This document shows positions 2,195 through 40,647 of a stretch of 64,000 nt of DNA, piece by piece. The notes under the pieces were generated by a model that was not told where the DNA came from, did no database searches, and saw only the letters and a program-made list of their open reading frames with translations. Made by a program: the position numbers and the translations under genes. Source of the DNA: Minisyncoccota bacterium (lineage in GTDB: Bacteria > Patescibacteriota > Minisyncoccia > UBA6257 > 2-01-FULL-56-20); NCBI GenBank assembly GCA_035541435.1, contig DATKNL010000010.1:30250-94249 (forward strand), read 5' to 3'. Within the stretch, counting starts at the first letter, position 1. Every line of letters begins with the position of its first letter.

Positions 2195-4789
2195 CTAGGG
2201 CCACGGCAGCGAATTGACCACGCCGACGAACGAGTTGCCGCCGGTATAGGTGGTCGCCATCTGTCCCGACGGGATCGCGATCCCCCAATAGAACGCGGAC
2301 GTCTGCGCGACCGCGGTCGACGTCGGCTTCGGCAGGTTGATCGCGACGGTCGATCCGGGATTCGCAAGGAGCGTCGTGCCCGACGCGTACGGGACCGACG
2401 CCGTCGCGAAGTGCTGCTGCCCGACGGGGATGCTGAACGAGCCGCTCGTCATGTTCGTGCCATAGACGCGCACGTTCATCGACGTGTTGCCGGTCGCCTT
2501 GATGGTCGCCGTCGCGGTGAGCGTTGACATGCTCTGCCCGGTGATGAAGCTTCCGTAATTGATCGTCGACGTGGTCTCGAAGGCGAGGAGCGAAAGGAGC
2601 GGTACGCCGCTCGACGTCGCCACGGCCCCGGTTCCCACCGTGTCCGTCGCGTCGATGAGCGTGCTCCACGAATCGCCCGCCCACGGCGTCCCCGAATCGG
2701 TCGGCTGCGCGAAGTACCAGAGCGGATAGTCGCACTCGACCGTGCACGAGTTGCCGGCGCACGAGTCGATCGCGCAGTTCGATCCGCTGCCGACGTAGCA
2801 GTTGTTGTTGTCAGCCGCACAGTTCGGACCGAGGCTCGTGCGATAGGCGACGCCGGTGATCGAATAGATGTCGGCCGAACCGTTCGAGTCGGTCACCGTG
2901 CCGGTCGCGACGATGGTGGTCGTCGTCCCCTCGATGAGCGTGATGCTCGCGCCATGGTTCAGCGACACGTTCGTGACGGTCGGCGCCGCGTCGACCTGGG
3001 TCTCGACGACGTTCGTATAGGAATCGAGCAGGCTCCCGTCTCCCTTCACGACCCTGAAACAGAAGGTCTGTCCGGCCGACCCGCTGTTGTTGATCAGCGA
3101 AAAGTCCCACTTGCCGTCCTGGTTCGCGAAGATCTTCGCGGTGTCGTTCGAGAACGGGTTCTGCTCTATATAGGTCTCATTGTCGATGACATTCGTGCCG
3201 TCCGTCGGATCCTGGGCGTTCGCGGTGAGCGCCGCGCCGTTCGCCGGCGTCGGGTTGTTATAAAAGCTGACCGCGCTCGAGGTCGCCGTCCCCACGTCGG
3301 CATAGGTCTCGCCCGAGAATCCCGTGTCGCACCCGCCCGCCGTGCTCGTCGCATATTGCAGCTTGAACGACTGGCCGCTGATGTCGATGCCGGTGCCGGC
3401 GACCGAGACGAGCACGCGCAGGCGGAACGGCTTGCCGGCAAGCGGGACGAGCGAGGTCGCGTTCTGCGTATCGAACGGCGTCCCGACCTGAGTGCCGTCG
3501 AGGTCCTGAAAGACGCGGTAGCCGGCCTCGGTGAACGTGTTCGGCGTGAAGACCGTGATCGTCGTGCCGTTCAGCGAATCGGCGTTCACGTCGACCCAGG
3601 TCGCATAGAGGCGGTACTGCGACATGCCGTCGATGCGGGCGCCATAGATGTTCGTCGTCGTCTGGTTGACCGGACCCTGCCGCGCTCCCCACGCGCTCAT
3701 GCTGGTGCTCGTCGAGATCTTGTAATAGACGTTCGCGGTGTTCGCCGTGCCGGGCGTCGTGCGGCCGCTATAGACGACGTAGACGTTCCCCGTGTTGAGG
3801 TCCAGGCCGATCTTCGCGCCGGTGAGGCCGAGCGTCGAACTCGTCTCGACGTCGGAGTCGCGCGTCCACGTGCTCGACGCCGGCGAATAGGTCCAGGTGC
3901 GGATCGCGCCCGTTCCCGCCGAGAGCGTCGCGACGTTGCAGGCCGACGCCATATAGATGAAGTTCGTCGAGTGGTTGACGGCCGTGCCGAAATGGCCGTC
4001 ATAGGTCGTATTCGGCGGGCAGTTGCTGTCGATCGTCGCCCAGCCGGCATCCCAGGTCGACGAGGCCACGTGCCACACCTTCGATTCGAGCAGGTTGCTC
4101 GCGATCACGAACCGGATGTTGAGGATGTTGCCGCTCGGCAGCGGGTTCAGGATCATCCAGTCGTTCGCGTTCGTCCCCCACGTGGTCGACGTTCCGACCT
4201 CGAGCCAGGTGCTTGTCGTCGTGCAGTTCGTCGAGCACGAGAGCACGTACGAATCCGCGGAGTTATAGACGCCCGCATACAGCCGCCCGTTCGTCCCCTC
4301 GGTCAGGGCGTCGACGGTCGCGCCGGCCGTGAAGGTTCCTCCTTGGGAAGCCGCCGAGATGTCGACAATCGATGTCAGCGTGTCGTTCGAGGTGTCGAGC
4401 CGGTCATACCAGAGGTCGTCGTTGCGGCTGTCGATCGTCGCGATGTGGACATAGGTGCCGGTCGAGTTGCCCGGCGTCCACCGGTCATACCAGACGGCGA
4501 CGCGGATGCAGGTCGTGTTCGGACCGACCGCCACCGCCGCGCTCCAGGTCGTGCCGCCGTCGGTCGTCTTCGAATAGACGCAGTTGTTCGACGAGTCGCG
4601 ATAAAAGGCATAGCCCGTCGAGCTCGTCGTGAAGACGTTCGTGAACGCCGTGCCGTTGTTCGAGTTGCTGTTCGTCGTGACGGCCGAGTCGATGACCGTC
4701 GAGGTCACCGCCCGCGCTCCATGCGGCAGGAACAGGCACAACGCACCGGCGAAGGCGGCGGCAAGGGCGATGAGGGTCGGTCGTCTCAT
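2195..4789 (-). CDS. Large secreted Asp-box (BNR)-containing protein, probable beta-propeller, sialidase-like fold
   Basis: 864-aa ORF with signal peptide MRRPTLIALAAAFAGALCLFLPHGARA. Asp-box motif SKTTDGGTTWS. Thr/Ser/Asn-rich, no TM; ends NSLPWP. Confidence 0.6.
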   Translation of the reverse strand: MRRPTLIALAAAFAGALCLFLPHGARAVTSTVIDSAVTTNSNSNNGTAFTNVFTTSSTGYAFYRDSSNNCVYSKTTDGGTTWSAAVAVGPNTTCIRVAVWYDRWTPGNSTGTYVHIATIDSRNDDLWYDRLDTSNDTLTSIVDISAASQGGTFTAGATVDALTEGTNGRLYAGVYNSADSYVLSCSTNCTTTSTWLEVGTSTTWGTNANDWMILNPLPSGNILNIRFVIASNLLESKVWHVASSTWDAGWATIDSNCPPNTTYDGHFGTAVNHSTNFIYMASACNVATLSAGTGAIRTWTYSPASSTWTRDSDVETSSTLGLTGAKIGLDLNTGNVYVVYSGRTTPGTANTANVYYKISTSTSMSAWGARQGPVNQTTTNIYGARIDGMSQYRLYATWVDVNADSLNGTTITVFTPNTFTEAGYRVFQDLDGTQVGTPFDTQNATSLVPLAGKPFRLRVLVSVAGTGIDISGQSFKLQYATSTAGGCDTGFSGETYADVGTATSSAVSFYNNPTPANGAALTANAQDPTDGTNVIDNETYIEQNPFSNDTAKIFANQDGKWDFSLINNSGSAGQTFCFRVVKGDGSLLDSYTNVVETQVDAAPTVTNVSLNHGASITLIEGTTTTIVATGTVTDSNGSADIYSITGVAYRTSLGPNCAADNNNCYVGSGSNCAIDSCAGNSCTVECDYPLWYFAQPTDSGTPWAGDSWSTLIDATDTVGTGAVATSSGVPLLSLLAFETTSTINYGSFITGQSMSTLTATATIKATGNTSMNVRVYGTNMTSGSFSIPVGQQHFATASVPYASGTTLLANPGSTVAINLPKPTSTAVAQTSAFYWGIAIPSGQMATTYTGGNSFVGVVNSLPWP

Positions 4790-22752: not shown

Positions 22753-23103
22753 TCAGACGTTCCCGATCGAAAGGATGACGAGTGCGATGACGCCGAGAAC
22801 GACCCCGACCGTCTGCGTAACGCTCAGACTCTCTTTGAAGATGATGAGGCCGATGAATAGGAATCCGGCGATCGAAAGAAGATCCCACAAGAGGGACGTC
22901 ACCACCAAACCGTTCTTGAGAAGCGATGGAATATAGAAAAAGGCCGACGCGACGTATCCGGCGAAGGCGAGGATGAGCCACAACGGCTCGCGCCCGACGG
23001 ACCAGGTCTTTGCGCTGTAATCGCCAAGGATCACGCCGCACGCGCTCAAGGCGATCAGCGCCCACATCGGAAGCGCGGGAAGGATGTCCGTGAAAAGGTC
23101 CAT
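22753..23103 (-). CDS. Small 4-TM membrane protein, SMR/DMT-superfamily-like
   Basis: 116 aa, four hydrophobic helices (WALIALSACGVILG, LWLILAFAGYVASAFFY, LVVTSLLWDLLSIAGFLFIGLIIF, VGVVLGVIALVILSIG). Size and topology match EmrE/YnfA-type proteins. Confidence 0.5.
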   Translation of the reverse strand: MDLFTDILPALPMWALIALSACGVILGDYSAKTWSVGREPLWLILAFAGYVASAFFYIPSLLKNGLVVTSLLWDLLSIAGFLFIGLIIFKESLSVTQTVGVVLGVIALVILSIGNV

Positions 23104-23157
23104 TGTCTAAATTCTACCCTATTCAGCCAAGAAGGATCTCCCCTCCGCCGTTTGATT

Positions 23158-23288
23158 CCTCGCACACATCCTGCATGAGCATGAAAAGGGATTCTCGGAG
23201 GCGCGCAGGCGCCGAGAGCATAGGCGGCCGGTCAGCAGACCGGAACGCCGTCCCTTTTCATGCTCATGTAGGATGTGCCCTCGCGAGG
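23158..23288. repeat. Imperfect ~34-bp inverted repeat (arms 23158-23191 and 23251-23288) separated by a 59-nt GC-rich loop; the right arm overlaps the 3' end and trailer of tRNA-Arg
   Basis: Arm1 CCTCGCACACATCCTGCATGAGCATGAAAAGGGA. Reverse complement of arm2 is CCTCGCGAGGGCACATCCTACATGAGCATGAAAAGGGA. The 26-nt core has 1 mismatch. Confidence 0.6.
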
Positions 23289-23347
23289 AATTGAACCTCG
23301 ATCTTCTCCTTCGGAGGGAGATGTCCTATCCGTTGAACGACGGGGGC
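23276..23347 (-). tRNA. tRNA-Arg (anticodon CCG)
   Basis: Manual fold of the minus strand: GCCCCCG-TC-GTTC-AACGGATA-GGAC-A-TCTCC-CTCCGAA-GGAGA-AGAT-CGAGG-TTCAATT-CCTCG-CGAGGGC-A. Has U8, a 7-nt anticodon loop with U33 and CCG at 34-36, a TTCAATT T-loop, and one C-A mismatch in the acceptor stem. CCA is not encoded. Confidence 0.7.
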
Positions 23348-23363: not shown

Positions 23364-24482
23364 CTATCTTACTATAAAGGAATAGACGGAGTAAACCGCC
23401 GCCACGATGAACAGGGCCGCCACGGCATCGAGCAGGAATTTCACGGCAGGGCGGAGCCTCAGCGAATGCCGGCCGACCGAGACGATGATCAGATATTGCA
23501 GGCTGAGGAATCCGCCGCCGACGAGGCCAACGATCGAGAGAAAGTTGTTGAATCCCGCGAGGACAAGCAGCGGTGGCACGAAAACGAGGATCCCGCGCGA
23601 AAGGACCGGCGGCCAGCGAAGATCCTTCTCGAGGGCATTCTTGATTTCCCGCGAGATGGGCAGATAGACGGTCGCGACCGCAAGCAAGCCGAGCGCGGCA
23701 AGCATGTCTTTTTTCCAAAGGGGCCACCCGGCGAGCCCCGAAGCGGTGTCGGGCGCGATGGCCGCCCCGCCCGAGGAACCGATGATGCCGGCGGCAAACA
23801 TGGCATAAAGGAGCGCGGCGAACAGGGTCCCTCCGGCCAGCGCGCGCCACGGCGAACGGGTTCGGTCGTGCCGCTTGCGCGCCTCATAGGCCGGCTCGAT
23901 GCTCGTCCAGCCCGCAAGCGAAAAAAGGACGGCGCCGAATGGCAAAAAGAGATTCGCTCCGTTCACCGCCGCCACGCCCCTGAAGACGACGTTCGGCCAT
24001 GCCGAAACGAAGATGATCAGGATGATGAACGACGTGCAGGCGATCCCCACGAGTTCAAGCTCCCGGATTTCACGGTCGCTCGCAAGCGCGATGCACGAAA
24101 TGAAGATCCAAAACCCGGTGAACGCATAGGCGAACGTCGCCTGCGGAACCGCAAGACGGATGAACTGGGCGCCGAGGACGAGATAGGCGAGCAGCGTAAG
24201 AAGAAGCCCGATCACGATGGCGACGAAGCCGATCCAGAATCCGGGCGCACCGAACCGGTCGCGGGCAAGCCCAAGCAGCCGTTTTTTCTCGCCCTCGCCT
24301 TCGAGCGTCTTCAGATAGACGACATGGGCGACGCTCACGAGCACCGCAAGTACCGCAAGATAGGCGAGGCTCACGAGCCACCCGGCCTGGAAAAAGACAT
24401 AGGGAAGCGCGAACACCCCGTCGCCGACCGTCGCCGCTGCGACAATCCCGGCGATTTCAAAGAATGGCATTTGGCGCTTCAT
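23364..24482 (-). CDS. Polytopic membrane transporter, APC-superfamily-like permease (about 11 TM)
   Basis: 372 aa, hydrophobic throughout with Gly-rich helices typical of amino acid/polyamine permeases. No soluble domain. Confidence 0.5.
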   Translation of the reverse strand: MKRQMPFFEIAGIVAAATVGDGVFALPYVFFQAGWLVSLAYLAVLAVLVSVAHVVYLKTLEGEGEKKRLLGLARDRFGAPGFWIGFVAIVIGLLLTLLAYLVLGAQFIRLAVPQATFAYAFTGFWIFISCIALASDREIRELELVGIACTSFIILIIFVSAWPNVVFRGVAAVNGANLFLPFGAVLFSLAGWTSIEPAYEARKRHDRTRSPWRALAGGTLFAALLYAMFAAGIIGSSGGAAIAPDTASGLAGWPLWKKDMLAALGLLAVATVYLPISREIKNALEKDLRWPPVLSRGILVFVPPLLVLAGFNNFLSIVGLVGGGFLSLQYLIIVSVGRHSLRLRPAVKFLLDAVAALFIVAAVYSVYSFIVR

Positions 24483-25575: not shown

Positions 25576-26922
25576 TCACAATTCCACGCTTTCGCCTGTT
25601 TTTGGCGCTTCGGCCGCAACGTTGAACTCTTCCGTGATCTTTGCCGCGAGCGTCGCGCTCGACTGCGGCTCGCCCTGAACGACGAACACCTTTTTCAGGG
25701 TGGTTTTCATGTGCCCGACCCATGAGAGAAGCCGGGGCTGGTCCGCGTGCGCCGAATAGCCCGGGATATTCACCTTGCGGCACCGGACCGGAATGGTCTC
25801 ACCAAAGATTTTCACCTCGTGGGCACCCTCAAGAAGGGTCCTGCCGAGCGAACCCTGGGCCTGATAGCCGACGAAGATGATTTCGCTCTTCGGATCGGAA
25901 AGATAGCGCTGTTCGTGATGCAGGATGCGCCCGCCGTTCGACATGCCCGAACCCGCGATGATGATCTTCGGCGGCGGGACGTCGTTGATCTCCTTCGACT
26001 GCTCGGTCGTGAGGGTGAGCCGCAACCCGGGAAAGTTCAGGATGTCGTCGCCTGATGCGGCGATGTGCCGCGTTTCCTGATTGAAGTAGTTTTCGTGCTT
26101 CTTATAGACGGCCGTCAGCTTGATCGCAAGCGGGCTGTCGATGAAGACGGGCACGCGCGGGATCCGCTTTTCTTCGAAAAGCTGATGAAGATGATACAGG
26201 AGCTCCTGGGTGCGTTCCATCGCGAACGTCGGGATCATCAGCACGCCGCCGGCCTTCACGGTGTCGTCAACCGCCCGTTCAAGCATCTCGCGACGCTGAT
26301 CGACGTTCTTATGGACGCGGTCCCCGTAGGTCGACTCGATGATGCAGTAATCGGCGGCATCGAGCGTTTCGGTCGGCTTGATGATCGGCGCGGGCGAATT
26401 GCCGAGGTCCCCCGAAAACACGACCGTCTTGCCCTCGGCCTGGACGCGCACGATGGCGGAACCGAGGATGTGCCCCGCGTCGAACAGGTCGACGGCGAAT
26501 TCGCCGACGGACACCCGCTCGTGATAATCGAGACCGCGCCACCGGCTCATGACGTGTTCGATGTCCTGGTCGCCATAGAGCGGCTCGCGGTGCTCGCGCT
26601 CAGCCTCCTTCGAAAGCAGGTGCTCCGAATCAAGCAGCATGAGTTCCGCGAAATCACGAGTCGCCCCGGTGGAATAGATTGTCCCCTTGAATCCGGCCTT
26701 GACGAGACTCGGCAGGCGGCCGATATGGTCGAGATGCGAATGCGTTATGAAAACGGCGTCGACCTGCTCGACGGGATAGGGAAAGGGATCGAAGTTCTCC
26801 CGTTCGGCATAATGGCTTCCCTGGTGAAGGCCGCAATCCACCATGATCTTCGTCCCGCCCGCCTCTAGTATGTAATTCGCCCCAGTCGCCTCGCCGGTGC
26901 CTCCATAAAAGGTAAGTTTCAT
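25576..26922 (-). CDS. MBL-fold beta-CASP family hydrolase (RNA-metabolising metallo-beta-lactamase)
   Basis: 448 aa. HSHLDHIG zinc motif (motif 2), downstream D and H motifs (GHILGSA, PGYSAHAD). Overall layout is that of beta-CASP ribonucleases. Confidence 0.75.
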   Translation of the reverse strand: MKLTFYGGTGEATGANYILEAGGTKIMVDCGLHQGSHYAERENFDPFPYPVEQVDAVFITHSHLDHIGRLPSLVKAGFKGTIYSTGATRDFAELMLLDSEHLLSKEAEREHREPLYGDQDIEHVMSRWRGLDYHERVSVGEFAVDLFDAGHILGSAIVRVQAEGKTVVFSGDLGNSPAPIIKPTETLDAADYCIIESTYGDRVHKNVDQRREMLERAVDDTVKAGGVLMIPTFAMERTQELLYHLHQLFEEKRIPRVPVFIDSPLAIKLTAVYKKHENYFNQETRHIAASGDDILNFPGLRLTLTTEQSKEINDVPPPKIIIAGSGMSNGGRILHHEQRYLSDPKSEIIFVGYQAQGSLGRTLLEGAHEVKIFGETIPVRCRKVNIPGYSAHADQPRLLSWVGHMKTTLKKVFVVQGEPQSSATLAAKITEEFNVAAEAPKTGESVEL

Positions 26923-40569: not shown

Positions 40570-40647
40570 GATTCCCTGCGTTTGAAATAAAAAACGGCGC
40601 TTGTCGCTGTTTTTTATTGTAAAACGCGGTAAAATGAGGCTTGGGTC

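Follow-up and report, generated by a model that had tools for sequence, protein, structure and literature searches.

What is a long, almost perfectly paired hairpin doing at the very end of a tRNA gene? The question is raised by a stretch of 64,000 nucleotides (64 kb; hereafter the window) that forms part of a metagenome-assembled genome (MAG) of Candidatus Paceibacterota, in the candidate phyla radiation (CPR), on contig ena:ERZ27256510:k141_595828 (NCBI locus tag near the site: VMT99_02600). In this window the gene for tRNA-Arg(CCG) runs directly into a branched hairpin that begins at the last two bases of the tRNA, and that we call H1. We find that H1 represents a small, previously undescribed, locus-bound family of three members with an unusual evolutionary pattern, in which the stem stays paired while its sequence is saturated with change. 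Our favored explanation, to which we assign a rough probability of 40%, is that H1 is an elaborated, terminator-like hairpin for 3'-end formation or processing, whose stem has been kept perfect by template switching or gene conversion, and that the same process made the inverted pseudo-tRNA that lies behind it. The features on which the argument turns are these:

23276..23347 (-): tRNA-Arg(CCG), 72 nt, found by ARAGORN and Rfam RF00005
23283..23296 (-): T-loop and 3' strand of the T-stem of that tRNA, GTTCAATTCCTCGC, forming an outer stem with 23150-23163
23251..23277 (-): proximal arm of the main stem P1, CACATCCTACATGAGCATGAAAAGGGA, overlapping the end of the tRNA gene by 2 nt
23192..23250 (-): GC-rich apex, 59 nt, 71% GC, supported by folds, alignment, pair counts, and identity
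23223-23249 (-): apex hairpin P2, GGCG..CCGGTC-TGCT-GACCGG.CGCC, from folding
23193-23217 (-): apex hairpin P3, TCTC-GGCGC-CTGC-GCGCC-TCC-GAGA, from folding
23165..23191 (-): distal arm of P1, TCCCTTTTCATGCTCATGCAGGATGTG, with a U-rich tract at its start, directly after P3
23134..23163 (-): anti-tRNA block, GCGAGGAATCAAAC followed by GGCGGAGGGGAGATCC, an inverted, gapped pseudo-copy of the tRNA

The tRNA itself is secure. It is the single tRNA of the 64 kb, called as Arg(CCG) by ARAGORN at 23275-23347 (-) and placed by Rfam at 23276-23347, where it scores 58.5 bits against a gathering threshold of 29. CCA is not encoded in the gene. Its acceptor stem carries a C5:A68 mismatch (window positions 23343 and 23280) at a pair that is T:A or T:G in nine relatives, and this could mean either that the 3' part of the gene was replaced via recombination or that a simple mutation occurred.

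The two P1 arms (23251-23277 and 23165-23191) are each 27 nt long, are complementary at 26/27 positions, and enclose 59 nt. Past the base of this stem the four nucleotides GAGG of the acceptor 3' strand (23279-23282) form an unpaired bulge, beyond which pairing resumes in an outer stem of 14 nt (23283-23296 with 23150-23163; 86% complementary). The adjoining 23134-23149 (GGCGGAGGGGAGATCC) is also complementary to the tRNA, so the palindrome extends past the outer stem, and the whole region is a quasi-palindrome of ~210 bp centered on the apex. By a wide margin, the arms of H1 form the strongest local inverted repeat of the window, and the only near-perfect one, all others listed being at most 88% complementary; the 18-nt core of the arm occurs twice in the window, in the two H1 arms, against a chance expectation of 0.03. 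A stretch of 231 nt folds at -119.4 kcal/mol (z = -6.35, with 0/200 shuffles equal), and a stretch of 156 nt gives a fold z score of -9.8 against shuffles. A first-pass annotation, made from the letters of the sequence, had reported the tRNA-Arg(CCG) and described a very long hairpin formed by an inverted repeat around a 59-nt GC-rich loop, both of which are borne out. Its nearly perfect arm of ~34 bp survives as a long hairpin and gives way in detail to 27 bp, a bulge, and an imperfect outer stem; its statement that the arm includes the last 12 nt of the tRNA does not hold, since the contiguous stem contains the last 2 nt alone.

Two further contigs of Paceibacterota, L072 and L070, have a homologue of H1 behind the equivalent permease and tRNA-Arg genes. 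The L072 copy is complete, with arms at 2139-2166 and 2226-2253 that are complementary at 28/28 positions around an apex of 59 nt; the L070 copy comprises the proximal arm and the apex, at the end of which the contig stops. The window and L072 align without a gap over 113 columns, with the following identities:

Apex: 46/59 (78%)
Inner 12 nt of the arm: 8/12
Outer 15 nt of the arm: 5/15 (33%), a random level
Adjacent permease coding sequence: 66%

L072 and L070 retain the inner 9-12 nt of the proximal P1 arm (an A-tract, GAAAAGGGA), and the outer portion differs from lineage to lineage; the arms are AT-rich, with a GC content of 44% (window), 36% (L072), and 31% (L070). The conserved pattern of the apex reads GACGGCGT ... 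GCGCCT ... CTCGG ... CCTCCGAGAA, and its helices change in compensatory fashion: P2 is CCGGTC/GACCGG in the window, GCGTTC/GAACGC in L072, and GCGACG/CGTCGC in L070, and GGCGC/GCGCC in helix P3b becomes GGCAC/GTGCC. The 4-bp helix P3a finds no support in L072. Over 47 pairs, 95.7% of cells are paired, against 33-58% in slid controls, and 17 pairs are changed on both sides with none changed on one side, a result reached by 0/500 shuffles. There is no G-U signature on either strand, and hence no strand assignment from G-U pairs. The structure-preserving substitutions of the apex point to a function of its own. A covariance model (R1) built from the two complete members, the window and L072, recovers L070, which lay outside the training set, at 32 bits (E ~1e-5), and finds nothing else in the window or in eight other relatives. 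As a separate observation, part of the L072 arm (2150-2166, ATATCCCTCGAAAGAG) resembles the anticodon arm of its own tRNA (tRNA positions 25-42, ATCTCCCTCCGAAGGAG), with 20/3000 shuffles as good; no such similarity is seen in the window or L070.

Behind the distal arm, the window (GAGGAATCAAACGGCGGAGGGG) and L072 (GATGGAATTGAACGACGGAGGGGG) have in common the anti-tRNA block. Its first half complements the T-loop and the 3' strand of the T-stem; for its second half there are two candidate partners, CCCTCCG of the anticodon arm or the acceptor 5' strand together with the D-arm. The latter option is the more economical for L072, because the reverse complement of its block, CCCTCCGTCGTTCAA, matches CCCT-CGTCGTTCAA of the tRNA at 14/15 positions; on that reading, the block would represent the entire tRNA in inverted form, less an internal stretch deleted between the GTTCAA motifs of the D-arm and T-arm. 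The G-run of the acceptor 3' strand is absent from the inverted copy in both the window and L072. Unconstrained shuffles give the outer complementarity p ~0.07 in the window and ~0.03 in L072, values that are weak alone; the stronger argument is the conservation of the block beside arms that have fully diverged. By prediction, opening the tRNA into an extended hairpin gains 22.4 kcal/mol of stability over cloverleaf plus H1 in the window and 18.7 kcal/mol in L072. In the window the following gene has its start codon 30 nt beyond the end of the block. Both the existence of a small conserved family and the greater share of the tRNA covered by the inverted copy go beyond what the first-pass annotation had described.

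Why should such a structure be read as a terminator or processing hairpin? The stop codon of the permease lies 16 nt upstream of the tRNA start, so that the tRNA is probably cotranscribed with the permease, and H1 would then form the 3' end of the permease-tRNA transcription unit. Relatives carry canonical palindromic terminators in the same place, with simple A-tract/GC-stem/U-tract architecture (L065 2661-2696 and L068 5275-5308), and because H1 occupies the same slot with the same layout on a larger scale, we read it as their counterpart. The A-tract GAAAAGGGA precedes the apex and the U-rich TCCCTTTTC directly follows P3, which folds at -12.2 kcal/mol in the window and -9.5 kcal/mol in L072 with the U-rich tail behind it in both. 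This order of A-tract, GC-rich hairpins, and U-tract would make H1 an elaborated bidirectional intrinsic terminator. The long AU-rich duplex would in addition be a good substrate for a double-strand-specific RNase of the ribonuclease (RNase) III type, whose cut would part the pre-tRNA from the downstream mRNA; such enzymes call for about 20 bp or more of near-perfect duplex, and P1, which has 27 bp with a single mismatch in the window and is fully paired (28/28) in L072, is a predicted substrate.

The pattern of change in the stem suggests how the pairing has been kept. The stem is paired (28/28 and 26/27) and yet saturated with changes, with no one-sided changes and no G-U signature, and we therefore infer maintenance at the level of DNA. 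Under this scenario, the perfection of the stem would come from a DNA-level process and not from stepwise compensation in the RNA; the candidate processes are template switching during replication and arm-to-arm gene conversion within the palindrome. Template switching is known to create perfect stems and to fix pairing in single events (PMC8794818). The same DNA-level process would have copied the tRNA in inverted orientation and would keep that copy similar to a tRNA that is under selection.

Several observations weigh against the terminator and processing scenario. The consensus terminator scan calls nothing at H1, where the U-tract is interrupted (UCCCUUUUC), P3 is followed by AUCCCUUUUC, and the preceding hairpin is branched; moreover, a plain terminator needs neither a stem of 27-28 bp nor an anti-tRNA block. 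The covariation statistics come from two complete members and one partial member only, and the positions compared in the "double changes" of the outer arm may be nonhomologous. The distribution of H1 is patchy as well, in that the nearer kin of L070 (80-84% permease identity) are without it and its carriers are not one another's nearest kin, a pattern to be expected equally of a mobile or replaceable module and of repeated loss. The terminator or processing structure that the first-pass annotation had named among its options is nonetheless the best supported by the position at the end of the unit, by the terminators of the relatives, and by the A- and U-tracts, with the silent consensus scan as its weak side. 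In its simplest form this explanation amounts to an ornate terminator whose palindrome is preserved by errors of replication, which would be a variation on what is already known. If the scenario as a whole is true, H1 would offer a clear case in nature of a long, functional hairpin with a stem replaced in its entirety at the DNA level, with selection acting on the apex sequence only, and it would inform our understanding of how long stems in RNA originate and remain paired. H1 is also a small candidate structured element specific to Paceibacterota, a clade whose RNA biology is barely explored. An example of the simple form elsewhere in the genome is an ordinary, terminator-like palindromic hairpin with A-tract and U-tract, with 19-nt arms that are 84% complementary, at window positions 40581-40623.

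The relatives bear on the alternatives. Across ten permease-homologue loci, which share 65-84% identity among themselves, the tRNA-Arg(CCG) gene stands right behind the permease in 10/10. The tRNA 3' end shared by the window and its relatives terminates in "GGGCAC"; the DNA that follows differs in every relative, and the upstream gene string is kept. Because the downstream DNA differs at every locus, the tRNA-Arg gene is a synteny break point, and it is clearly a hot spot of rearrangement and integration in the relatives. L065 has a direct repeat of the tRNA 3' end (20/21 nt) at a distance of 169 nt downstream (2808-2828), and L072 has a direct copy 255 nt downstream (2372-2393), past which come AT-rich DNA and an open reading frame (ORF; 2594-3574) with a weak match to HTH_17, an excisionase-type domain. 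In L068, a large serine recombinase (Resolvase, Recombinase, and Zn ribbon domains; phrog_95 integrase, E = 6e-62) adjoins the tRNA:

L068 5328-6590 (-): serine recombinase/integrase gene, directly downstream of the orthologous tRNA-Arg(CCG); the contig stops within the gene

In L065 and L072, an inverted piece of the T-arm (anti-T piece) also pairs with the downstream direct T-arm copy and thereby encloses a second multihairpin unit, and a GGAACC-GAG-GGTTCC hairpin is common to the second units of both. This second unit, from which it is clear that pieces derived from the tRNA pair in different arrangements, is absent from the window. In L072 it occupies 2254-2400, between the anti-tRNA block and the direct tRNA 3'-end copy, and the anti-T piece and the direct copy are both out of register with the tRNA by the same 1 nt. 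The L065 region 2661-2828 opens with a perfect 16-bp terminator hairpin followed by the inverted T-arm piece at 2707-2717; further on, an 11-bp perfect stem surrounds a multihairpin region of 60 nt, with a fold z score of -6.3.

Given such a hot spot, H1 and the anti-tRNA block might be a terminal module of, or the scar from, elements with site-specific integration at the 3' end of tRNA-Arg(CCG), each of which would supply a tRNA 3' end and a terminator of its own, with the remainder lost or lying outside the window. We regard this as the main rival, less likely than the terminator and processing scenario, and the idea of tRNA-targeted integration, already raised in the first-pass annotation, has some merit by virtue of the hot spot. 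The kept upstream synteny with its break right past "GGGCAC," the direct repeats of L065 and L072, the recombinase beside the L068 tRNA, and the patchiness of H1 relative to the permease tree all favor it. The C5:A68 mismatch is likewise expected if the 3' part of the tRNA was replaced via recombination, and the best-preserved inverted copy begins at the T-stem/T-loop, the usual boundary of tRNA attachment sites; the attB of Ms6, for instance, lies in the T-loop (PMC1762012). The window, however, contains no integrase, no phage-like gene, and no direct 3'-end copy within 23 kb downstream or 40 kb upstream. Neither recombinases nor phage-like genes appear among the flanking ORFs in Pfam and PHROGs, so that the earlier remark about the lack of a nearby integrase holds for the window, although L068 has one; and no direct copy of the tRNA 3' end is found in the window at up to 3-4 mismatches over 21-22 nt. 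Integration, moreover, yields direct and not inverted repeats, it leaves a perfect, hypervariable stem without a role, and it sits poorly with the structure-preserving substitutions of the apex, which point to a function of its own; the tRNA 3' end, searched for as a candidate phage attP, had 0 matches among IMG/VR viral contigs. A more exotic route to the same place is the integration of folded single-stranded DNA in the manner of the CTX phage, which would have left a hairpin attachment site at one junction. In CTX phi, attP1 and attP2 lie in opposite orientation ~90 bp apart within a forked hairpin of ~150 bp (PMC3089051), and the T-arm of the tRNA and its inverted copy, flanking a 113-nt spacer, reproduce that form, though the form only. 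The perfect inner stem, the imperfect, host-derived outer stem, and the unpaired center at the acceptor 3' strand are in keeping with this, as are the direct tRNA 3'-end copies that follow a short "cargo" in L072 and L065 and the shared register shift in L072. Against these stand the absence of any single-stranded DNA phage, Rep, or cognate tyrosine recombinase gene from the window and from the flanks of the relatives, the size of the L065 and L072 "elements" (merely ~170-260 nt), the hypervariability of the very stem flanks that would bind the recombinase, and the lack of anything comparable in viral, phage, and plasmid collections; we consider such a footprint highly improbable.

A different kind of explanation takes the anti-tRNA block to be functional in cis, as a trap: on read-through of H1, it would pair with the T-arm and the 5'/anticodon region of the freshly made tRNA-Arg(CCG), locking the precursor into a giant hairpin ~20 kcal/mol more stable than the cloverleaf, where it would stay unmatured, and so tuning the supply of this tRNA. 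The conservation of the block between the window and L072 despite the saturated arms next to it, the predicted stability of the extended fold, and the unpaired acceptor 3' strand in both are what one would expect of a trap. The tRNA folds first during transcription, however, and modifications and proteins then stabilize the cloverleaf; gene conversion from the tRNA explains the conservation of the block equally well; L065 has an anti-T piece in the absence of H1, paired instead with a downstream direct copy; and the shuffles of the outer complementarity are weak. We know of no anti-tRNA trap mechanism, and we judge this one improbable; if true, it would constitute a so-far undescribed tuning of the supply of a single tRNA at the stage of precursor folding. 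Should either the trap or a single-stranded hairpin attachment site that mimics a tRNA gene prove true, the locus would be considerably more interesting than a terminator. That H1 is instead a mobile palindromic repeat inserted beside the tRNA, of the kind of miniature inverted-repeat transposable elements (MITEs) or repetitive extragenic palindromic (REP) sequences, is suggested by its being palindromic, small (113 bp), and intergenic, and a MITE-like element had been among the first suggestions. This reading fares poorly, and we find it barely credible: the element is single-copy in the 64 kb by sequence and covariance model (no second copy was found by exact or mismatched search, by repeat finder, or by R1), its arms are its least conserved part and its loop the most conserved (outer arm 5/15 against apex 46/59), all three known members sit at the same locus, and there is no target-site duplication around it. 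GCGAGG does occur on both sides, but it is not such a duplication, since the palindrome CCTCGCGAGG inside the tRNA and the inverted T-stem copy explain it, and a preinsertion site reconstructed from it would miss the last bases of the tRNA. Chance similarity or an assembly artifact, finally, would have in its favor that contigs L002, L003, L070, and L071 break at the borders of the hairpin. We hold the odds of either to be negligible: the repeat and fold statistics speak against chance, an independent assembly of the same organism (L003) contains both arms, including their T/C difference, another (L002) contains the apex and distal arm, and because these agree, and because a second species (L072) has the same architecture with another stem sequence, H1 is not a product of assembly. 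As to where these contigs end, L002 starts at the first apex base and L070 stops at the last, L003 starts one base past the tRNA, and L071 and L069 stop at the tRNA end; such short-read breaks are likely to be graph breaks at the shared tRNA sequence or the palindrome, with strain heterogeneity in the arms as the alternative.

Wider searches looked for further copies and for known families. The 18-nt arm probe lies in the hypervariable part of H1, and because of this, scans with it say nothing on the size of the family. Its matches comprise at least 27 single ones in genome contigs, at least 29 metagenome loci (28 of them with a single match), and at least one in viral contigs, with no inverted pair; in the remaining metagenome locus, L044, two direct matches lie on one strand at a distance of 203 nt. 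The matches are in unrelated taxa and extend 0-3 nt past the seed, except for two that extend by 5 nt with a mismatch and one by 7 nt. Additional copies of the arm, which the first-pass annotation had suggested seeking, are thus absent from the window beyond the two arms of H1, and the matches elsewhere are at chance level, being single and unpaired among those listed; as an argument against a MITE, this is weak for a probe that is hypervariable. One 25-nt exact match to the arm and 3 apex bases lies at L010 481-505, in coding-looking DNA of an unrelated Bacteroidia MAG, and in the absence of a hairpin partner we judged it to be chance. A loose apex motif gave more than 120 matches on viral contigs, in GC-rich DNA, and R1 applied to 100 of these gave a best score of 23 bits (E = 0.018) and nothing convincing; BLAST against phage and plasmid records returned no H1 match. 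Against Rfam 15, the tRNA alone reaches a gathering score, and permissive scans of the window and L065 yielded chance-level microRNA and small RNA matches.

Some structured elements were considered and set aside. A hammerhead ribozyme came to mind from the tRNA 3' end of L065, where CTGATGAG has GAAA nearby, but the spacing leaves no room for stems I and III, the motif is missing from the window, and nothing is returned by Rfam. T-box, retron, tmRNA-like, signal recognition particle, and integron attC elements lack their defining genes or motifs here and have no Rfam match. For an invertible switch the spacer is too short, and inversion would branch assembly graphs at the arm mismatch and not at the loop border, where L002 breaks.

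The neighborhood of the locus is divided by the tRNA into a conserved upstream side and a variable downstream side, of which the nearest genes are these:

23364..24482 (-): amino acid permease (Aa_trans), upstream, with synteny kept in all relatives
22753..23103 (-): ORF of 116 aa without a family match, the first gene downstream, present at the equivalent position in no relative

The gene string that ends at the tRNA comprises RuvA, a Mur ligase, a beta-CASP nuclease, a SLOG protein, a small ORF, and the permease. For the beta-CASP/RMMBL metallo-beta-lactamase (25576-26922, minus strand), the precomputed annotation of orthologues adds Anti-Pycsar_Apyc1 (PF23023). Beyond the 116-aa ORF come a YeiH-like gene on the opposite strand and then a long array of surface or secreted proteins. 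This array (window 1-21400) consists of codirectional large ORFs on the minus strand with fn3, Big_13, cohesin, dockerin, and WxL-interacting domains, several of its ORFs have no family match, and its GC content is 0.63-0.66 against ~0.60 elsewhere in the window.

How, then, does H1 compare with known systems? Like MITEs and the REP and enterobacterial repetitive intergenic consensus (ERIC) palindromes, it is a small, imperfect intergenic palindrome in a transcribed spacer; unlike them, it is single-copy and locus-specific, and its loop rather than its termini is conserved. The forked hairpin attP(+) of CTX phi, from the elements that exploit Xer, resembles it in its inverted target copies, spacer of ~100 nt, and unpaired center, whereas H1 has no dif/Xer context and no phage genes, its target is a tRNA, and its flanks are hypervariable. 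With the attL/attR repeats and gene-less scars left at tRNA 3' ends (like those of cis-mobilizable elements), the locus shares repeats that derive from the tRNA 3' end and run from the T-arm onward and the synteny break, and the relatives add direct repeats and an integrase; the copy in the window differs in being inverted, 59 nt away across a palindrome, and without an integrase or direct repeat. RNase III stems that flank rRNA and tRNA are matched by a 27-bp near-perfect duplex starting at the end of a mature RNA, although the stem of H1 lies wholly 3' of the tRNA instead of bracketing the mature RNA, and its cleavage is predicted only. The bidirectional Rho-independent terminators share with H1 a position at the end of a unit, an A-tract/GC-hairpin/U-tract order, and flanks that extend the stem; H1 departs from them in its 59-nt apex with two hairpins, its stem of 27-28 bp with an extension into the tRNA, its interrupted U-tract, and the anti-tRNA block behind the hairpin. 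The template-switch hairpins of Monttinen and Loytynoja (2022, PMC8794818) represent a mutational process rather than a functional class, and the tract of H1 is unusually long beside them and includes a tRNA gene; they have in common with H1 a perfect reverse-complement copy, compensatory changes at many bases, and the absence of G-U intermediates.

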